A DNA stretch of 4,306 nt, filler included, from an uncultured virus (IMG/VR IMGVR_UViG_2061766007_000580) (lineage: Duplodnaviria; Heunggongvirae; Uroviricota; Caudoviricetes). It is 2 parts of one record of this genome, joined end to end, with 100 filler letters (N's around TTAATTAATTAA, not from the genome) between each part and the next. Parts side by side here need not be neighbours in the genome. Positions count along the whole stretch, not along the records: positions 904 to 4,306 come from IMGVR_UViG_2061766007_000580; 1 more part is not named here. One strand, given 5' to 3'. Below are positions 904 to 4,306 of the stretch, one piece after another. The stretch's first letter is position 1; the number at the start of each line of letters is the position of its first letter. Below the pieces are notes generated by a model that was not told the origin of the DNA, searched no databases, and was given only the letters and a program-made list of their open reading frames with translations. Position numbers and translations under genes: made by a program.

Positions 904-1087
904 TCACTGGGTCGTACTGCCGAACGACTCCGTCGTTGTACATGAGCAGGTAGCCGCTCGGCGTTTCGTCGTTGCTCACGACGATGCACTCGGCCATCGC
1001 AGTAAGCTTCACGGCTTCGGCATGGCTCAGCTCGACGTTGCGATGTGCAATGCGCATGTACTGCTTGTCGATGATGTTGGCGTTCAT
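904..1087 (-). CDS. Hypothetical protein, 3' end lost in gap (MNANIIDKQYMRIAH...VRQYDPV...)
   Basis: GGAAGGAG RBS upstream of ATG 1087; open to the gap at 903. Confidence 0.8.
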
Positions 1088-1125
1088 GGTCGCGCTCCTT
1101 CCCGCGCTCGGTTGTTCTTATGAAT

Positions 1126-1147
1126 CGACCCCGCCGAAGCGGGGCCG
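1126..1147 (-). terminator. Stable C(UUCG)G hairpin directly after a stop codon; terminator or mRNA stabiliser
   Basis: CGGCCCCGC-TTCG-GCGGGGTCG; followed by ATTC, so no real U-tract. Confidence 0.5.
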
Positions 1148-1300
1148 TCAAATCGGATCTTCGTCCTCGTCCTCCTCGTACTCGGCCGCGTCGGCGGCTC
1201 CCCGCTCATAGGCGAATTCGAGGAGCTTGCACTTGCCGATGATTGCGGCCGTGACGAACGTGCCTAGGCACATGGCGAACTCTCGGCGTGTCATTCCCAT
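1148..1300 (-). CDS. 50-aa mini-protein not in ORF track: MGMTRREFAMCLGTFVTAAIIGKCKLLEFAYERGAADAAEYEEDEDEDPI
   Basis: Strong GGAGGTG RBS overlapping the TAG of the upstream gene; fills the space between that gene and a hairpin; TGA at 1150-1148. Confidence 0.8.
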   Translation of the reverse strand: MGMTRREFAMCLGTFVTAAIIGKCKLLEFAYERGAADAAEYEEDEDEDPI

Positions 1301-1311
1301 GACGTCACCTC

Positions 1312-1539
1312 CTACCACTCGACGAGAACGAGGCGCTTCGCGCCAGTATCGGTGGACTCCCAGGCGCTCTCATTCGAGCCCCTGATTACCGCGTCCGTCT
1401 CGTCGAAAGCACGCTTCGCGCTCAGCGACTCGGTCGCATCCCAGCAGCCGAACGCGGCGCACTCCGCGCTTGCGGCCTGTTCGGCCATCTCGACGAGTTC
1501 GTACAGTTCGTCGATGGTGATGTCGTTGTACTCGGGCAT
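1312..1539 (-). CDS. Hypothetical acidic protein, 75 aa (MPEYNDITIDELYELVEMAEQAA...LVLVEW)
   Basis: GGAAGGAG RBS before ATG 1539; paralog starts at 85. Confidence 0.85.
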   Translation of the reverse strand: MPEYNDITIDELYELVEMAEQAASAECAAFGCWDATESLSAKRAFDETDAVIRGSNESAWESTDTGAKRLVLVEW

Positions 1540-1624
1540 GGTTGCTCCTTCCGTTTCGTAGACTCGTGATGCAGAACGCATCAGCCAAGGCGCTCGTGAG
1601 CGCCCTGACGGGACGTTCTGGCTC
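1540..1624 (-). ncRNA. Conserved structured intergenic element, copy B
   Basis: Same stems as 86-174; the only difference is GT-CT-AC here versus GT-GAACCG-AC before GAAACGG. Confidence 0.5.
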
Positions 1625-1888
1625 CTAGCGAAACCCGAACTCGCGCTCCATCTCGACGGCGTAGCGCTCCAGCTCGGCGATATGCGACTCCGCACCATCG
1701 ATGCGCTCGTCGATTTTGGAGAACTCTTTCTCGACCCAATCGCGCTCGAATGTGCTCAGTGCGTGCATGGCGCACACGTTCGCCACGCTCTTGTGCAGGT
1801 TCGCCATGTCTTCGAGCGCAATGGTGAGTTCGTCTTCCCACTGCCAGAGTTCGGCGCAGACTTCTTCGTAGGCTTCGATGGTGGACAT
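1625..1888 (-). CDS. Hypothetical highly acidic helical protein, 87 aa, copy B (72/87 identical to copy A)
   Basis: AAGGGAG RBS before ATG 1888; TAG at 1627-1625. Confidence 0.88.
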   Translation of the reverse strand: MSTIEAYEEVCAELWQWEDELTIALEDMANLHKSVANVCAMHALSTFERDWVEKEFSKIDERIDGAESHIAELERYAVEMEREFGFR

Positions 1889-2036
1889 TGAGTCTCCCTT
1901 CTCTCGATTCTGGGCATAGCTCTCCCTAGGATTCCGATATGTGGGTGNNNNNNNNNNNNNNNNNNNNNNNNNNNNNNNNNNNNNNNNNNNNNNNNNNNNN
2001 NNNNNNNNNNNNNNNNNNNNNNNNNNNNNNNNNNNN

Positions 2037-2466
2037 TGTACACGACGGCGCCACGGCTCTGGCAATATGCCCACTTCGAGCTGCTGAACGCCTTCTTCAC
2101 GGCTTCCTTGAATGCGGGGCTGTAGCCCGTGCCCTTCTCACCGCTGAATGGGTAAATCCATGCCCACGTTCCCTCAATGCGCCATTCTGCCTTATCGAAC
2201 CCAGCTTCCCAGAGCTTCAGGACGGCGTTGTCCAGTCGTTTCACCTGATGGTCGGTGAGGTCGTGCTTCTCAGGGGTGTAGTACACCCTGCCCGTTTCGG
2301 ACTTCTTGACTTCGGGCTTCGGGGCGGACTTCTTCGCCTTCCGCTTCGGGGCGGACTTCTTCGGGGCCTGCGAGACTTCGACGCCCATGCCTGCCAGCTG
2401 GACGGCCTGCTCGAAGCTGATGATTCCAGACTTGTATGCCTGCTCGATGTTGATGTTCTTCTTCAT
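2037..2466 (-). CDS. Hypothetical protein (at least 143 aa) with Lys/Ala/Pro-rich linker (KKSAPK x2) and aromatic-rich C-terminal domain; 3' end in gap 1948-2036
   Basis: AGAAGGGA RBS before ATG 2466 (MKKNINIEQAY...); 21-bp direct repeat at 2316-2336 and 2343-2363. Confidence 0.85.
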
Positions 2467-2494
2467 GGTTCTTTCCCTTCTACTAGGATGGATT

Positions 2495-2956
2495 ACTTGC
2501 GCGGGAATGCGCATATCTACCCATTGAGTGCTAGTAATGACCTCAATAGGCAGACTCCACATTCCCCAACGTGGATACAATTCGCCCTACTGTCACTAGG
2601 GCCGGTTCTAACCGCCGCCTTGTAACTAGCCCCCGTTAAGGGTTCCGTTCCCGTGGACTTGTGAGCGCCTATCGCGTTGGGTTTGGTTTTTGTCGGCTTG
2701 TCTTTCGTCTGCTATGCAGCCGCCGCCCGTGCAAGCGCTTTCATCTTTCGCCACGCTGTAGCTAGTCGGATTACGCGGTTCTCTCTATGGCCGTTTTGGG
2801 TTTGAGTACATGGAACGCGCATCTATTGGTATCGCACGTGGTAGCTTGCTACCGTCTCTTACCCTCATGCATTTGCCCGTGTACCGTAGGGGATGGAGTC
2901 TCAAGACTGCCCGTCCAAGTTGACCTCTTACGCAACTTGCTCCACTGCCTACGGGC
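2495..2956 (-). ncRNA. Candidate large, multi-domain structured RNA in the leader of the leftward operon (family not identified)
   Basis: More than 12 nested or adjacent helices; imperfect pairs in five stems are G-U on the minus strand; no convincing CDS. Confidence 0.7.
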
Positions 2957-3029
2957 TGGGGTTTGGCTGGCGGGTGGGTATGGGCGGCGCCCGTGCCCGT
3001 GCCCTTGCCTGTGTCGTGGTGTTGGTCAT
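2949..3029 (-). CDS. Putative 26-aa leader peptide MTNTTTQARARARAPPIPTRQPNPSP
   Basis: GGAAGGA RBS 8 nt before ATG 3029; stop TAG lies within the first helix of the structured region. Confidence 0.4.
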   Translation of the reverse strand: MTNTTTQARARARAPPIPTRQPNPSP

Positions 3030-3067
3030 TTCGTGCGTCCTTCCAATCGCGGGTTGATGATGGTTGG

Positions 3068-3096
3068 ATAGTAGGGTATTCCCTAACATTTCACAA
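3068..3096 (-). promoter_or_regulatory. Leftward sigma70-type promoter, TSS near 3061
   Basis: -35 TTGTGA (3096-3091), 17-bp spacer, -10 TACTAT (3073-3068). Confidence 0.65.
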
Positions 3097-3141
3097 TAGG
3101 GATATACCTATCTTCACATTGTCTACATAAGTATTTCCCTA
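3072..3141. promoter_or_regulatory. Three 14-bp palindromic operators, consensus TAGGG-W4-CCCTA
   Basis: TAGGGTATTCCCTA 3072-3085, TAGGGATATACCTA 3097-3110, TAAGTATTTCCCTA 3128-3141; located between divergent genes. Confidence 0.75.
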
Positions 3142-3163
3142 ACATGCACAAAACTAGTATGAT
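3135..3163 (+). promoter_or_regulatory. Possible rightward promoter for the HTH gene
   Basis: TTCCCT (3135-3140)-N17-TATGAT (3158-3163); the -35 overlaps operator 3. Confidence 0.45.
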
Positions 3164-3199: not shown

Positions 3200-3439
3200 A
3201 TGATGGAAGCTATCGAAGCTGTAAAACATGCCGCGAATGTGTCGCATGTGCCAATAACACAAATAGGCATTGCAATGGGAAAGCGGCCAAACTATGTAAG
3301 CGTGGCTGCAAACAAGAATCAAAGACTACGGAGTGACGTATTAGCGCGAATGCTTGACGTGTGCGGATATGGGCTGTTTGCTATCCCTTATGGGCATGAG
3401 CCAAATGACGCCATACAGATAACAGCGGATAACGACTAG
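3200..3439 (+). CDS. Small XRE/Cro-CI-type helix-turn-helix transcriptional regulator (start 3200 or 3203)
   Basis: AGGGG RBS at 3191-3195; pattern ITQIGIAMGKRPNYVS...LRSDVLARMLDVCGYGL fits the XRE five-helix fold; adjacent operators. Confidence 0.75.
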   Translation: MMEAIEAVKHAANVSHVPITQIGIAMGKRPNYVSVAANKNQRLRSDVLARMLDVCGYGLFAIPYGHEPNDAIQITADND

Positions 3440-3648
3440 AGCACTACTTATATATAGCGTTGATTGACATAGTGCCGGAAATTGCATTTGCGCAGGTCAA
3501 CGCGGGAAAATCACGTATGAGAACGTAGATGATCTTTTTGGGAATATATGGGGTTTGCATGCTATTGAATAGGCTACGCAAGCATGGCGGCTTTGTGTCG
3601 CGTGCTAGTCAATCAATCATGCAATGATAGTTAGTGCGGATAGCGCTA

Positions 3649-3677
3649 GCGCGATGGGTTGCGCGATGGGTTGCGCG
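3649..3677. repeat. Tandem 12-mer GCGCGATGGGTT x2.4
   Basis: 3649-3660, 3661-3672, partial 3673-3677. Confidence 0.8.
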
Positions 3678-3862
3678 TTGCAATAGGGCGGCATGGTTGC
3701 ATGATAGGTTATAGCGTCATCGGTTGCGCTTTTATCTGATTGGCAGTGGGCAATTGAGCGATATGTGCATTGCGGATTGATGGGGATGTAACGCGCATGG
3801 TTGCGCCCTGGTAATTATTCATATATGAGAATAATACGTTATCGGTGATGGGCGATTGGATG

Positions 3863-4258
3863 AATTTACGTAAGCGTAAGTGACGTAAATTTTTGCGTGC
3901 CAGGGCGATAGAGTTTACTAAAAGTTTGTGATTGTAAACACGGATGATGCGTTTTACTGAATGACGCGATGTGTAAGCGTTAAGTGATGGGCGATAGCGT
4001 TTTACGTACAGTGGGAGAGTGTAAGAATTAGTGATTATCGGTTAGCTGTTCCTAACATGTGCGCGTGATGGGATTCCATATGTACCGATAATGGTACAAA
4101 GAAGGGCATAATGCCTGATAGATTCCATTTTTGCAGGTAAAAGTTTACATATAGGGTATGTTGCGTAAGGAATAGGTTTTACACTTGAGATTTTGAGCGT
4201 AAAACAGTGGATAAGAAAGCCAAACTTGACACGACGTAAACACTCCATGGCGTTTACG
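3863..4258. repeat. Cluster of 12 TTTAC/GTAAA motifs, mostly in inverted pairs
   Basis: Motifs start at 3865, 3885, 3914, 3934, 3953, 4001, 4137, 4144, 4178, 4199, 4236, 4253. Confidence 0.7.
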
Positions 4259-4306
4259 ATACCCCCCTATTCGTATAATAATCGAATCGACCAGGGGGAA
4301 CGGCGG

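Follow-up and report, generated by a model that had tools for sequence, protein, structure and literature searches.

A rare, large, multi-domain RNA heading a repressor-controlled early operon of animal-gut phages

Introduction

Bacterial and phage RNAs that exceed 400 nt and are both intricate and conserved are few: the rRNAs, RNase P, tmRNA, self-splicing introns, OLE, GOLLD, ROOL, raiA and a handful more. Each of them has yielded new RNA biology or a new structure. ROOL often lies beside tRNA islands and forms RNA-only homo-oligomeric cages. Among shorter phage RNAs, HK022 put suppresses termination without protein factors, via the zinc-binding domain of the RNA polymerase beta' subunit. 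In lambda, the nut sites comprise boxA and boxB elements to which N and Nus factors bind, and the binding of N to the leader controls both elongation and the translation of N itself. The P4 CI RNA and the c4 RNAs of P1 and P7 are immunity RNAs of about 70 to 80 nt that are cut from phage early-operon leaders.

Here we analyzed a stretch of 4,306 nt (the window) from an uncultured virus of the Caudoviricetes (IMGVR_UViG_2061766007_000580). Its minus strand carries a large structured RNA (hereafter, the leader RNA) heading a repressor-controlled phage early operon. This element, proposed by an initial annotation of the window, is supported by synteny, covariation, G-U asymmetry, the lack of a conserved reading frame and the lack of an Rfam match.

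Like ROOL and GOLLD, the leader RNA is hundreds of nucleotides long, multi-domain and phage-encoded, harbors highly conserved loops and is of unassigned function (PMC12286853). It also shares a rumen link with ROOL, which was first seen in the cow rumen (PMC12286853), since the window DNA is best represented in bovine gut metagenome runs. However, it does not match the Rfam models of ROOL or GOLLD at E ≤ 10 and is far rarer, and while these two are free-standing genes, the leader RNA precedes the protein genes of an operon as its 5' leader, directly behind a repressor-controlled promoter. Furthermore, unlike ROOL, it has no tRNA genes nearby (ARAGORN, 0). Its putative place closely behind an early phage promoter is that of HK022 putL and putR, which are cis-acting nascent RNAs (PMC9378689). 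The put RNAs are, however, about 70 nt long with two stem-loops (PMC9378689), as opposed to 15 or more helices in ~480 nt here, and there is no sequence likeness between them. The succession of an early promoter, a long structured leader and then a small basic-protein gene in first position is similar to the lambda nutL/N leader, but this first gene is unrelated to N and belongs to a family of unassigned function, RNA binding by its product being hypothetical. If it were released from the transcript, the leader RNA would be a functional RNA from an early-operon leader, like P4 CI RNA and P1/P7 c4; unlike these, it does not match their Rfam families, and a protein repressor gene is present at the locus. 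Finally, a catalogue built on IMG/VR comprises more than 10,000 candidate structured RNAs of 29 to 151 nt, for which at least three unique, non-identical regions were required (PMC10690425). The leader RNA resembles these candidates in lying on phage contigs of IMG/VR and in its covariation evidence, but it is ~480 nt long and is present there on two identical contigs only. In a part of the supplements of that study, no match to the leader RNA motifs was found (PMC10690425).

Results

Genomic context of the leader RNA

We recovered three distinct full-length copies of the leader RNA, namely, those of the window, of L001/L002 and of L029. All three share the same locus order, with a divergent HTH gene, a promoter with operator repeats, the leader RNA and the same first gene (Table 1). 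The leader spans ~2467-3061 of the minus strand (594 nt), and its conserved core (2494-2967) measures about 466 to 493 nt among the copies. The leader RNA was never met apart from the first gene, be it at the three loci or on a metagenome contig of run X4, which represents a fourth lineage and carries the ribosome-binding site and the first-gene start directly 3' of the leader RNA. Runs X4, X5 and X7 had small shares (0.05 to 0.11), with contigs spanning only parts of the window. The three full copies and the fragments all come from animal-gut metagenomes. Regarding the phage itself, a 45.9-kb homologue contig encodes TerL, portal, tape-measure and tail genes, and its TerL is 47 to 49% identical to terminases of Paenibacillus and Clostridium phages. 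The phage would be temperate and siphovirus-like, with a Gram-positive animal-gut bacterium as its putative host.

The promoter announced by the initial annotation at 3068-3096 is indeed present in the sequence. It agrees with the consensus at 8 of 12 positions and was hence not listed by the promoter scan. Transcription is predicted to start near 3061, and the candidate promoter lies ~90 nt ahead of the conserved core. L001 harbors TTGACT-17-TATATT at the equivalent site, and on a contig of run X3 an L001-type promoter (TTGACT-17-TATCTT) is joined to a window-like leader at 3066. The operator-like repeat TTCCCTAACAT occurs twice, compared to 0.00 expected matches (200 shuffles), and at the same place L001 and L029 carry another repeat, ACTCCNCAWTTGA. 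The leader RNA is kept between the window and L001/L029 while both operator repeats and repressors differ. The window repressor had no family match itself. Its positional counterpart in L029 matched phrog_1373, "transcriptional regulator" (E = 2.2e-4), and the counterpart in G001 matched HTH_31 at an E value of 4.8e-4, below the Pfam cut-off.

Table 1. Features of the leader RNA locus, in window coordinates
Feature	Position	Strand	Basis or details
Small HTH repressor-like gene, 79 aa, divergent	3200..3439	plus	ORF
Operator-like direct repeats TTCCCTAACAT	3079-3089 and 3135-3145		Flank the divergent promoters
Early (lytic) promoter-like site	3068..3096	minus	-35 TTGTGA, 17-nt spacer, -10 TACTAT; read from sequence
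Poorly conserved 5' part of leader	2968..3061	minus	A/C- and purine-rich, GAAGG-like motifs; invariant columns 0.18-0.30
Domain 1, nested helices and small hairpin	2865..2967	minus	Alignment, pairing counts
P1 2959-2961/2876-2878; P2 2948-2954/2884-2890; P3 2939-2943/2895-2900	Domain 1	minus	
P4 2933-2938/2917-2922; hairpin P5 2913-2916/2904-2907	Domain 1	minus	
Domain 2, variable	2782..2864	minus	Hairpins 2840-2853 and 2815-2839 kept by position
Conserved linker GCCAUAGAGA	2782-2791	minus	3' of domain 2 hairpins
Domain 3, multi-branch	2607..2781	minus	Closed by long-range P6 and P7
P6 2773-2779/2610-2618; P7 2761-2767/2624-2630	Domain 3	minus	
Domain 4	2494..2606	minus	Hairpin 2584-2602, stem 2556-2575, 14-bp stem 2515-2555, hairpin 2498-2513
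Spacer with conserved UCCAUC	2467..2493	minus	Alignment A3
Ribosome-binding site GAAGGGAAAG	2471-2480	minus	Alignment A3
First operon gene, 148 aa, 3' end masked by N	2020..2466	minus	ORF; full length from identical protein P0004

Homologues and known families

The initial annotation could not assign the element to a known family, and our searches agree with this. A cmscan search of the 4,227 families of Rfam 15 at E ≤ 10 gave no match to positions 2440-3080 or to the whole window, nor to the counterparts of the element in L029 and L104. Models of riboswitches, T-boxes, ribosomal-protein leaders and other cis-regulatory leaders were among those without a match at this threshold. The leader RNA is thus neither ROOL nor GOLLD nor any catalogued leader. 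With ARAGORN, tRNA genes were absent (0) from the window, from L029 and from the entire 45.9-kb contig.

Further copies proved scarce. In viral DNA-pattern scans with the conserved blocks of the leader RNA, 2 of 8, 2 of 4, 2 of 6 and 2 of 46 stretches were true matches, in each case the two contigs already known, which are identical to each other and are the only ones in IMG/VR to carry the leader RNA. Scanning viruses with the alignment of the protein returned the same two contigs and nothing further. With a 15-mer of the small hairpin motif, at least 119 viral loci were hit, but among the matches listed none harbored the leader RNA (nhmmer). The metagenome scan yielded 3 true matches out of 20, two of them being the L001/L002 contigs, while one genome scan returned 0 stretches and another 0 true matches out of 16. 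Likewise, neither an nhmmer profile run over every fetched locus, nor blastn and tblastn against 50,697 phage records, nor a scan with the repressor protein produced an additional copy or match. The 810-nt noncoding stretch of L122 showed no likeness to the leader RNA, even by nhmmer with all filters off. Taken together with the evidence on its fold, this element is very probably a conserved structured RNA and a member of a new family, one that is rare, large and multi-domain.

Evidence for a conserved fold

We aligned the three copies (alignment A3, 562 columns) and folded them jointly with RNAalifold on the minus strand, obtaining 105 pairs in 19 helices. In these helices, 94.6% of the 315 cells were paired, compared to 29 to 41% when the partners were slid. 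Moreover, 23 pairs carried compensatory changes, i.e., changes on both sides, against 1 to 4 in the slid controls, and none of 500 shuffles reached this number; these counts rest on three full-length sequences, too few to give a formal covariation test such as R-scape any power, and the shuffle control ignores relatedness. Covariation among homologues, named as a check by the initial annotation, is present in the three copies. The gut metagenome contig of run X3 added compensatory pairs at 2887/2951, 2917/2938 and 2906/2914, as well as a G-U pair at 2896.

The strand of the RNA could be read from the mismatches. It had been noted that imperfect pairs in five stems are A-C on the plus strand and G-U on the minus strand, and this holds for all 7 non-Watson-Crick pairs concerned. 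Across the helix cells of the alignment, we counted 28 G-U versus 4 A-C on the minus strand, and the RNAalifold covariation term was -6.96 on the minus strand versus -1.55 on the plus strand.

In single sequences, the folding signal was modest. The better-than-shuffled folding looked for by the initial annotation was seen for the cores, with z scores of -2.54 for the 474-nt window core and of -1.88 and -2.87 for the homologous cores, but the whole 594-nt leader reached only -1.56 (minus strand; +0.30 on the plus strand). It is the comparison of homologues, and not the energy, that sets these stems apart from chance.

A protein-coding explanation finds no support in the alignment. Each copy has 2 to 12 stop codons per frame in all six frames, and of the 11 to 17 indel runs between two copies, 9 to 15 have a length not divisible by 3, so that no reading frame is conserved across the three copies. 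Domains 1, 3 and 4 have 0.53 to 0.72 invariant columns, compared to 0.12 to 0.53 for the repressor gene, 0.22 to 0.28 for the promoter region and 0.55 to 0.70 for the C-terminal domain of the first gene. The conservation of the leader RNA hence equals that of the best nearby protein domain. As to transcription, a 424-nt contig from a metatranscriptome library (run X7) covers 2745-2987 and gives a weak hint that the leader RNA is transcribed, bearing in mind that this is the sequence of a relative and may reflect DNA carry-over. Words containing CUAG were observed among the short repeated motifs of the leader RNA.

Domains of the leader RNA

The initial annotation listed 14 arm pairs, all of which are antiparallel and complementary at their exact coordinates. 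As a fold, this list stood in large part. At least one compensatory change was found in eight of the stems (2884/2948, 2894/2940, 2916/2933, 2815/2833, 2624/2761, 2584/2597, 2556/2568 and 2515/2542). Stem 2498/2509 is invariant across the copies, and stem 2840/2848 is a hairpin in all three, each time with a different sequence. Stems 2664/2733 and 2694/2718 recur solely as a nested topology of independent single-sequence folds. In contrast, two stems probably lie outside the conserved fold: 2576-2580/2620-2624 was paired in 85.7% of the cells yet crosses the better-supported helix 2773-2779/2610-2618, and 2603-2607/2610-2614 was paired in 61.5%, has a 2-nt loop and has its 5' arm taken by the same helix.

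Domain 1 had 98.6% of 69 cells paired and compensatory changes in 6 of 23 pairs (slid controls, 32 to 44% and 0 to 1). Its joining strands, UGAGAC and GGUACACGGGCAAA, are invariant. A further helix that would close this domain (2972-2974/2862-2864) was rejected, being broken in L001; the same GGG may close domain 2. We also discarded a boxA-like P4 loop spotted by eye, GCUUAACAGG in L001 and L029, which is not kept in the window (GCGUAAGAGG); neither boxA nor boxB was recognized in the leader RNA.

In domain 2, the hairpins occur in all three copies with differing sequences. Its helix 8 has changes on both sides in 5 of 6 pairs, and L001 harbors ~35 additional nt, including one more hairpin. 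Helix 7, which would join the 2850s to the 2480s, was dropped with 77.8% of the cells paired.

Domain 3 is closed by P6 (95% of cells paired) and P7 (100%), each with two compensatory pairs. It branches into a long irregular hairpin (2659-2749) with A/C-rich bulges on the 3' side and the invariant block AAGUCCACGGGAACGGAACCC. The nested topology of this hairpin was the same in three independent single-sequence folds. Sequence-based realignment left almost no consensus pairs in it (5) or in 2782-2868 (8), and support for these two regions is the weaker one, consisting of the topology shared by single-sequence folds. The long-range helices of the leader RNA bridge up to ~170 nt.

In domain 4, 94.4% of 108 cells were paired, with 6 compensatory pairs (slid controls, 25 to 49% and 0 to 1), and the loop GUGACAG of hairpin 2584-2602 is invariant. 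Additionally, GGGAA (2562-2566) can pair with UUCCC (2503-2507), either as a loop-loop contact or within a 9-bp alternative helix, 2558-2566/2503-2511. The latter was paired in 96.3% of the cells, contains one A-U to U-A swap (in the alternative pairing of GGGAAUGUG with CGCAUUCCC) and appeared in the minimum free energy or centroid fold of all three sequences. The last hairpin is separated from the AUG by 28 to 31 nt in all three copies. A conserved hairpin hiding the Shine-Dalgarno sequence was considered and rejected, local hairpins over the ribosome-binding site being found in 2 of 3 copies only.

First gene and downstream hairpins

The first-gene protein has a helix motif, "I(L/I)(S/T)FEQA", at its N terminus, followed by a linker rich in Lys, Pro and Ala and by a C-terminal alpha/beta domain that is conserved. 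The family of this protein is small, with 10 proteins among 5.8 billion and 9 clusters among 1.84 billion representatives. Searches against Pfam, PHROG and NCBIfam gave nothing above the curated cut-offs, the protein atlas had no usable match and cluster members carried no names. The AlphaFold model (pLDDT 69) found nothing in the PDB at E ≤ 0.001 with Foldseek. In a VIA-wide fold search, the top Z score was 5.4 (part of an FtsK motor), and several N-terminal domains of arginyl-tRNA synthetases scored 3.6 to 4.4, within the range of common arrangements, leaving no clear fold match.

No terminator-like site was found between the leader RNA and the first gene, and the scan revealed no U-tract terminator on the minus strand downstream of the leader RNA. 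The hairpin at 1126-1147, between downstream genes, is G+C-rich and has no U run, and in G001 a G+C-rich hairpin follows the first gene. Moreover, a conserved hairpin motif of ~55 nt repeats in the intergenic spacers of the operon. Family searches recognized no N- or Q-like protein in the operon.

Discussion

We tentatively favor a role of the leader RNA in cis on the early operon, a reading that we hold as somewhat short of probable. We prefer it because there is no terminator-like site before the gene, the spacing of 28 to 31 nt is fixed and the alternative pairing contains a swap. The minus strand of ~2467-3061 would be the untranslated 5' leader of the early (lytic) operon, and the leader RNA would be the first transcript made upon induction or infection, folding during transcription. 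It could thereby decide, in cis, on the passage of RNA polymerase and ribosomes into the early genes. One option is that, along ~600 nt without translation, the elongation complex is altered or shielded from Rho or hairpin terminators. Alternatively, the 3' domain may be the active part, given its end close ahead of the start codon and its anti-Shine-Dalgarno-like UUCCC, which takes part in two alternative pairings. The leader RNA may be bound by the first-gene protein, which is basic and rich in Lys, by analogy with lambda N at its own leader.

As a special case of such a role in cis, the folded leader could be an RNA-only processive antiterminator, binding RNA polymerase and carrying it past hairpins inside the operon, as HK022 put does; the initial annotation had proposed such read-through for the hairpins at 1126-1147 and 547-568. 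The place directly downstream of the early promoter, as for putL (PMC9378689), the lack of a recognized N- or Q-like family, the G+C-rich hairpins between downstream genes and the ~55-nt hairpin motif in the spacers would all fit. We nevertheless consider this unlikely, as the leader RNA is about seven times the size of put and shares no sequence with it; no U tracts accompany the downstream hairpins, which never scored as terminator-like on the minus strand. Since no U-tract terminator was found downstream on this strand, the need for antitermination is hypothetical. Nearly as likely as a leader acting in cis is an ornate RNA that is cut from it and acts in trans. This well conceivable alternative, a stand-alone or processed stable large noncoding RNA, would be the first product of the early promoter. 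It would either work like ROOL or GOLLD or provide a decoy or scaffold, whose partner could be the first-gene protein, a host factor or a defence system. The ~480 nt and 15 or more helices of the leader RNA are far more than any known cis-regulator needs, and this, like its long invariant loops and joining segments, favors such a "payload" RNA. ROOL and GOLLD are likewise phage- or prophage-encoded, large, without an assigned function and known from the cow rumen (PMC12286853). In addition, CACGGG is present 3 to 5 times per copy on the sense strand, as a repeated binding motif might be. The leader RNA has also been kept while the specificity of repressor and operator was swapped, which suggests as its target either the conserved first gene or something that the hosts share. 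On the other hand, its 3' end has neither a terminator nor a recognizable processing site, the fold stopping shortly before the AUG; it always accompanies the first gene (three of three loci and the run X4 contig), and it neither matches the ornate RNAs of Rfam nor has tRNA genes nearby.

It is very improbable that the conserved object is DNA, with inverted repeats maintained as such in, e.g., an array of protein sites, an origin of replication or a packaging site. Inverted repeats and short repeated motifs (CACGGG and the CUAG-containing words) could be protein sites, but the excess of G-U over A-C cells, a covariation term far stronger on the minus strand and helices of such span argue against it, and the leader RNA lies inside the transcribed leader while the operator repeats lie outside. 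Hardly credible at all is an element with no function of its own, i.e., a spacer structured by chance or an unrecognized small coding region. Single-sequence folding energies just modestly below those of shuffles would be compatible with it, and the 5' part of the leader does contain, in the window alone, a 26-codon ORF with an SD-like GGAAGGA. However, conservation matches that of the best nearby protein domain, compensatory changes are far above controls and all frames are interrupted; the 26-codon ORF is missing from L001 and L029, and we rejected it as a leader peptide.

Going further than an action in cis, one may speculate, with considerable doubt, that this new class of ornate large RNA is the RNA half of a phage lytic-commitment machinery that licenses the whole early operon. 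It would fold while the early transcript is being made, with the Lys-rich protein of the adjoining gene as a possible partner, and then either sense a host signal or reprogram RNA polymerase, Rho or ribosomes of the host; the ~55-nt hairpin motif between downstream genes may cooperate. If true, this would give Gram-positive gut phages an RNA-based equivalent of N/Q-type control. The place of the leader RNA is fixed and interpretable, as it would be transcribed first on leaving repression and is tied to a single gene of unassigned function. Its function is thus testable by simple reporter, induction and probing experiments, given a host or a surrogate. The leader RNA is also of a size suited to cryo-EM.

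Locus and gene order

In the window, which contains several masked N runs along its 4,306 nt, a row of small genes and an HTH-like gene diverge from a region carrying direct repeats and a promoter-like site. As the latter agrees with the consensus at only 8 of 12 positions, it was not listed by the promoter scan. It lies about 595 nt from the first start codon, and the element (2494-2967, minus strand) fills most of this gap.

Features of the locus and of its homologs. Positions refer to the window unless a contig is named.
Feature	Position	Strand or location	Remarks
Small genes in a row	leftwards from 2466	minus	ORFs
First gene	2020-2466	minus	product P0004, 148 aa
HTH-like gene, 79 aa	rightwards from 3200	plus	ORF
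Direct repeats, TTCCCTAACAT twice	3079-3089, 3135-3145	between divergent genes	0.00 expected by chance
Promoter-like TTGTGA-17-TACTAT	3096-3068	minus	read from sequence
5' stretch	3061-2968	minus	~90 nt, variable
Domain 1	2967-2865	minus	three-way arrangement P2, P3, P4 plus small hairpin P5
Domain 2	2864-2782	minus	variable; two hairpins, position kept, sequence not
Domain 3	2781-2607	minus	multi-branch, closed by long-range helices P6 and P7
Domain 4	2606-2494	minus	hairpin with invariant loop GUGACAG, stem-loop, 14-bp stem, terminal invariant hairpin
CACGGG-bearing leader spans	2650-3001; L029 2511-2801; L001 2424-2740	minus for window	motif counts
~55-nt motif	118-174, 1568-1624	minus	conserved
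~55-nt motif, other loci	L029 814-870; L105 16776-16827; L122 126-180, 368-422		

Homologs of the element

Relatives of the first gene (52% identity) were found on two IMG/VR contigs, L001 and L002, which are identical across the 1,400 nt compared. The non-coding stretch upstream of these relatives shares long identical blocks with the window. Pattern scans on the invariant blocks recovered L029, a 5.2-kb metagenome contig with one more copy, giving three distinct full-length copies (window, L001/L002 and L029). The scans of viral contigs returned true matches in 2 of 8, 2 of 4, 2 of 6 and 2 of 46 stretches, with no copy beyond the known ones. The genomes of 185,579 species yielded no stretch in one scan and no true match among 16 in another, and 50,697 phage records contained no match.

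All three copies share the same gene order: a divergent HTH gene, a promoter with operator repeats, the element, and the same first gene. L001 and L029 carry a different operator word, ACTCCNCAWTTGA rather than TTCCCTAACAT, and their repressors show only distant likeness, indicating that the RNA-plus-gene module is kept while immunity specificity differs. Additional partial variants were present on contigs of other gut metagenome runs. On a contig from run X3, an L001-type promoter (TTGACT-17-TATCTT) is joined at 3066 to a window-like leader, and on one from run X4 the element is directly followed at its 3' side by an RBS and an ATG-ACC-ACC start. A 424-nt contig of a relative from the metatranscriptome library X7 spans 2745-2987, at most a faint indication of transcription. 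The sequence of the window was best represented in the DNA of bovine gut metagenome runs, which may be its source.

P0004 consists of an N-terminal helix motif, a Lys/Pro/Ala-rich linker and a conserved alpha/beta domain. This layout is constant in its family (P0001-P0023), with one to three copies of the 'LTFEQA'-type helix motif, a Lys/Pro/Ala/Glu-rich linker and the conserved domain at the C terminus. With 10 proteins found in 5.8 billion and 9 clusters in 1.84 billion representatives, this is a very rare family, and the product gave no family match and no clear fold match. One member of its 90%-identity cluster has 180 aa compared to 148 aa, and one metagenome contig has a 15-nt insertion within the linker.

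The homologue's contig is a siphovirus-like prophage encoding TerL (47-49% identity to Paenibacillus and Clostridium phage terminases), portal, tape measure, tail endopeptidase and a C5 methylase. The methylase adjoins a weak BglII-like endonuclease match, and three glycosyl/glycerophosphate transferase genes lie in the interval from the early region to the terminase (L105 5515-8356 and L106 876-4117); together these are possible restriction-modification and cell-wall-modifying cargo.

Evidence for a structured RNA on the minus strand

The initial annotation had listed 14 stems between 2495 and 2956. All are complementary exactly at their coordinates, and the imperfect pairs, 7 positions in five stems, are indeed all G-U on the minus strand. 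Comparison with shuffled sequences, which it had also suggested, gave a modest signal in folding energy, not striking by itself: z was -2.54 for the 474-nt core, -1.88 and -2.87 for the two homologous cores, and for the full leader -1.56 on the minus and +0.30 on the plus strand.

RNAalifold predicted 105 pairs from the three minus-strand sequences, and 94.6% of the 315 cells were paired. In this three-sequence alignment, 23 pairs had changes on both sides, a number reached in none of 500 column shuffles. When partners were slid by 1-3 columns as a control, 29-41% of cells were paired and 1-4 pairs had changed on both sides. Recounts by domain on cleaner alignments agreed, with 98.6% paired and 6 of 23 pairs compensatory for domain 1, and 94.4% and 6 of 36 for domain 4. 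The RNA was assigned to the minus strand because G-U outnumbered A-C cells (28 versus 4) and because the covariation term was -6.96 on this strand versus -1.55 on the other. The X3 contig, a fourth lineage, added three compensatory pairs (2887/2951, 2917/2938 and 2906/2914) and a change at 2896 that is G-U on minus and A-C on plus.

No conserved frame was found: every copy has 2-12 stops in each of the six frames. Most indels among the copies are not multiples of three. Invariant columns in domains 1, 3 and 4 (0.53-0.72) reach the level of the best nearby protein domain (0.55-0.70) and are far fewer in the repressor gene (0.12-0.53) and the promoter region (0.22-0.28). These comparisons show an RNA fold that is conserved, strand specific and multi-domain in the early-operon leader.

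Anatomy of the element

Domain 1 has CCC:GGG as closing helix and invariant joining strands. Domain 2 of L001 has one extra hairpin. Helix P6 of domain 3 was absent from the initial list. One of the listed stems, 2576-2580/2620-2624, is doubtful since it would cross P6 as a pseudoknot; the stem 2603-2607/2610-2614 is likewise doubtful, as it is not conserved. The multi-branch of domain 3 contains an invariant block of 21 nt and a long hairpin of irregular shape whose 3' bulges are 12 nt long and A/C-rich, a unit duplicated in L029. The pairing of GGGAA (2566-2562) with UUCCC (2507-2503) in domain 4 is compatible with two drawings, a loop-loop contact or part of a 9-bp alternative helix; the MFE or centroid fold of each of the three sequences contains this helix. 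Within the terminal block just one base varies, and its pairing partner varies with it (A-U to U-A). In all copies the fold ends 28-31 nt upstream of the AUG. Base counts of the core (G 137, A 137, C 122, U 78) show it to be poor in U.

CACGGG occurs 3-5 times per copy on the sense strand, with three sites homologous and the remainder lineage specific. The motif is concentrated in the leader (5/6 matches in the window, 4/6 in L029, 3/8 in L001), where it could serve as a recurrent binding site or result from the CCC:GGG helices.

Relation to known RNAs and possible function

In agreement with the initial annotation, which could assign no family, Rfam 15 (4,227 families) gave nothing at E ≤ 10 for the region alone, nor for the homologous elements of other loci. 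The sole match in the whole window was a terminator-like hairpin at 1126-1147 (16.4 bits versus a gathering score of 57). The lack of an Rfam match indicates that the element is not ROOL, GOLLD, OLE, a riboswitch, a T-box or a catalogued leader. Moreover, whereas tRNA genes are the usual setting of ROOL and GOLLD according to PMC12286853, the window, L029 and the 45.9-kb prophage contig contain none. PMC10690425 describes an IMG/VR catalogue of structured-RNA candidates with motifs of 29-151 nt, each of which needed matches in a minimum of three unique, non-identical regions, filters that would exclude the element. The element's motifs were not found in the supplements that were searched, and the listings of full-text literature searches showed no account of it. 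The element is a new, rare RNA family among the large ornate phage RNAs and structured leaders, and the core of the earlier proposal, a large unassigned structured RNA heading a repressor-controlled phage operon, is supported.

Transcription would start at the repressor-controlled promoter, and the element would be the first RNA made on induction. It has a nearly even chance of being a cis-acting leader, a reading favored because no terminator-like site lies between fold and first gene, the fold sits at a set distance from the start codon and is strictly linked to a single gene, and the 3' domain has two pairings around the anti-SD-like UUCCC. Such an untranslated leader of ~600 nt would also have to cope with Rho. 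A put-like form of cis action is unlikely, since put RNA has only ~70 nt (PMC9378689) and no U-tract terminators were found downstream of the element. The size and complexity of the element, and its retention across different immunity types, favor a second reading, nearly as likely, in which it is a processed, stable, ornate RNA acting in trans; taking ROOL and GOLLD as models, it could target a host factor or a defence system, or act jointly with the first gene's protein. A role at the DNA level conflicts with the G-U asymmetry and is very improbable.

Other elements in the window and related contigs

Beyond the repressor gene, positions 3440-4306 form an ORF-poor stretch of ~860 nt with lower G+C (0.39-0.52), strong G-over-C skew (+0.33 to +0.39) and short direct repeats (a tandem pair of GCGCGATGGGTT, and two copies each of GTGATGGGCGAT and GGGCGATAG-GTTT). 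It showed no conservation in L029 or the homologous genome record G001 and no Rfam match; possible roles are those of an origin, an attachment region or some other non-coding element. At 804-903, masked N runs surround TTAATTAATTAA (848-859), a word interrupted by stops in every one of the six frames; this stretch resembles a scaffold linker, and the flanking parts may not be truly adjacent. A two-gene cassette with the small hairpin motif described below between its genes occurs twice (13-485 and 1467-1939, 86.8% identity), reflecting either a real tandem duplication or a scaffolding effect.

Intergenic spacers of this operon also harbor a second RNA-like motif, conserved and ~55 nt long, ~25-30 nt ahead of the RBS of the next gene. 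RNAalifold predicted 20 pairs, with an outer stem AGAACGU/GCGUUCU around the hairpin CAGGGCGCU-NNNN-AGCGCCUUG; alternatively, GAUGC-GUUCU-GCAUC could form as a small competing hairpin. Two copies are present on L122, an IMG/VR contig that is otherwise unrelated; they carry a compensatory AGAGCGU/GCGCUCU, and their inner hairpins differ. The motif had no Rfam match and may act as a signal for processing, termination or translation. L122 also has its own ORF-poor stretch of ~810 nt (906-1715, minus strand), located between a textbook terminator, AAGCCCGCUUCGGCGGGCUUUUUU, which it follows directly, and the next gene. Its folding z was -3.15 (20 shuffles), and it had no Rfam match and no likeness to the window's element. 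It may be another large phage RNA.
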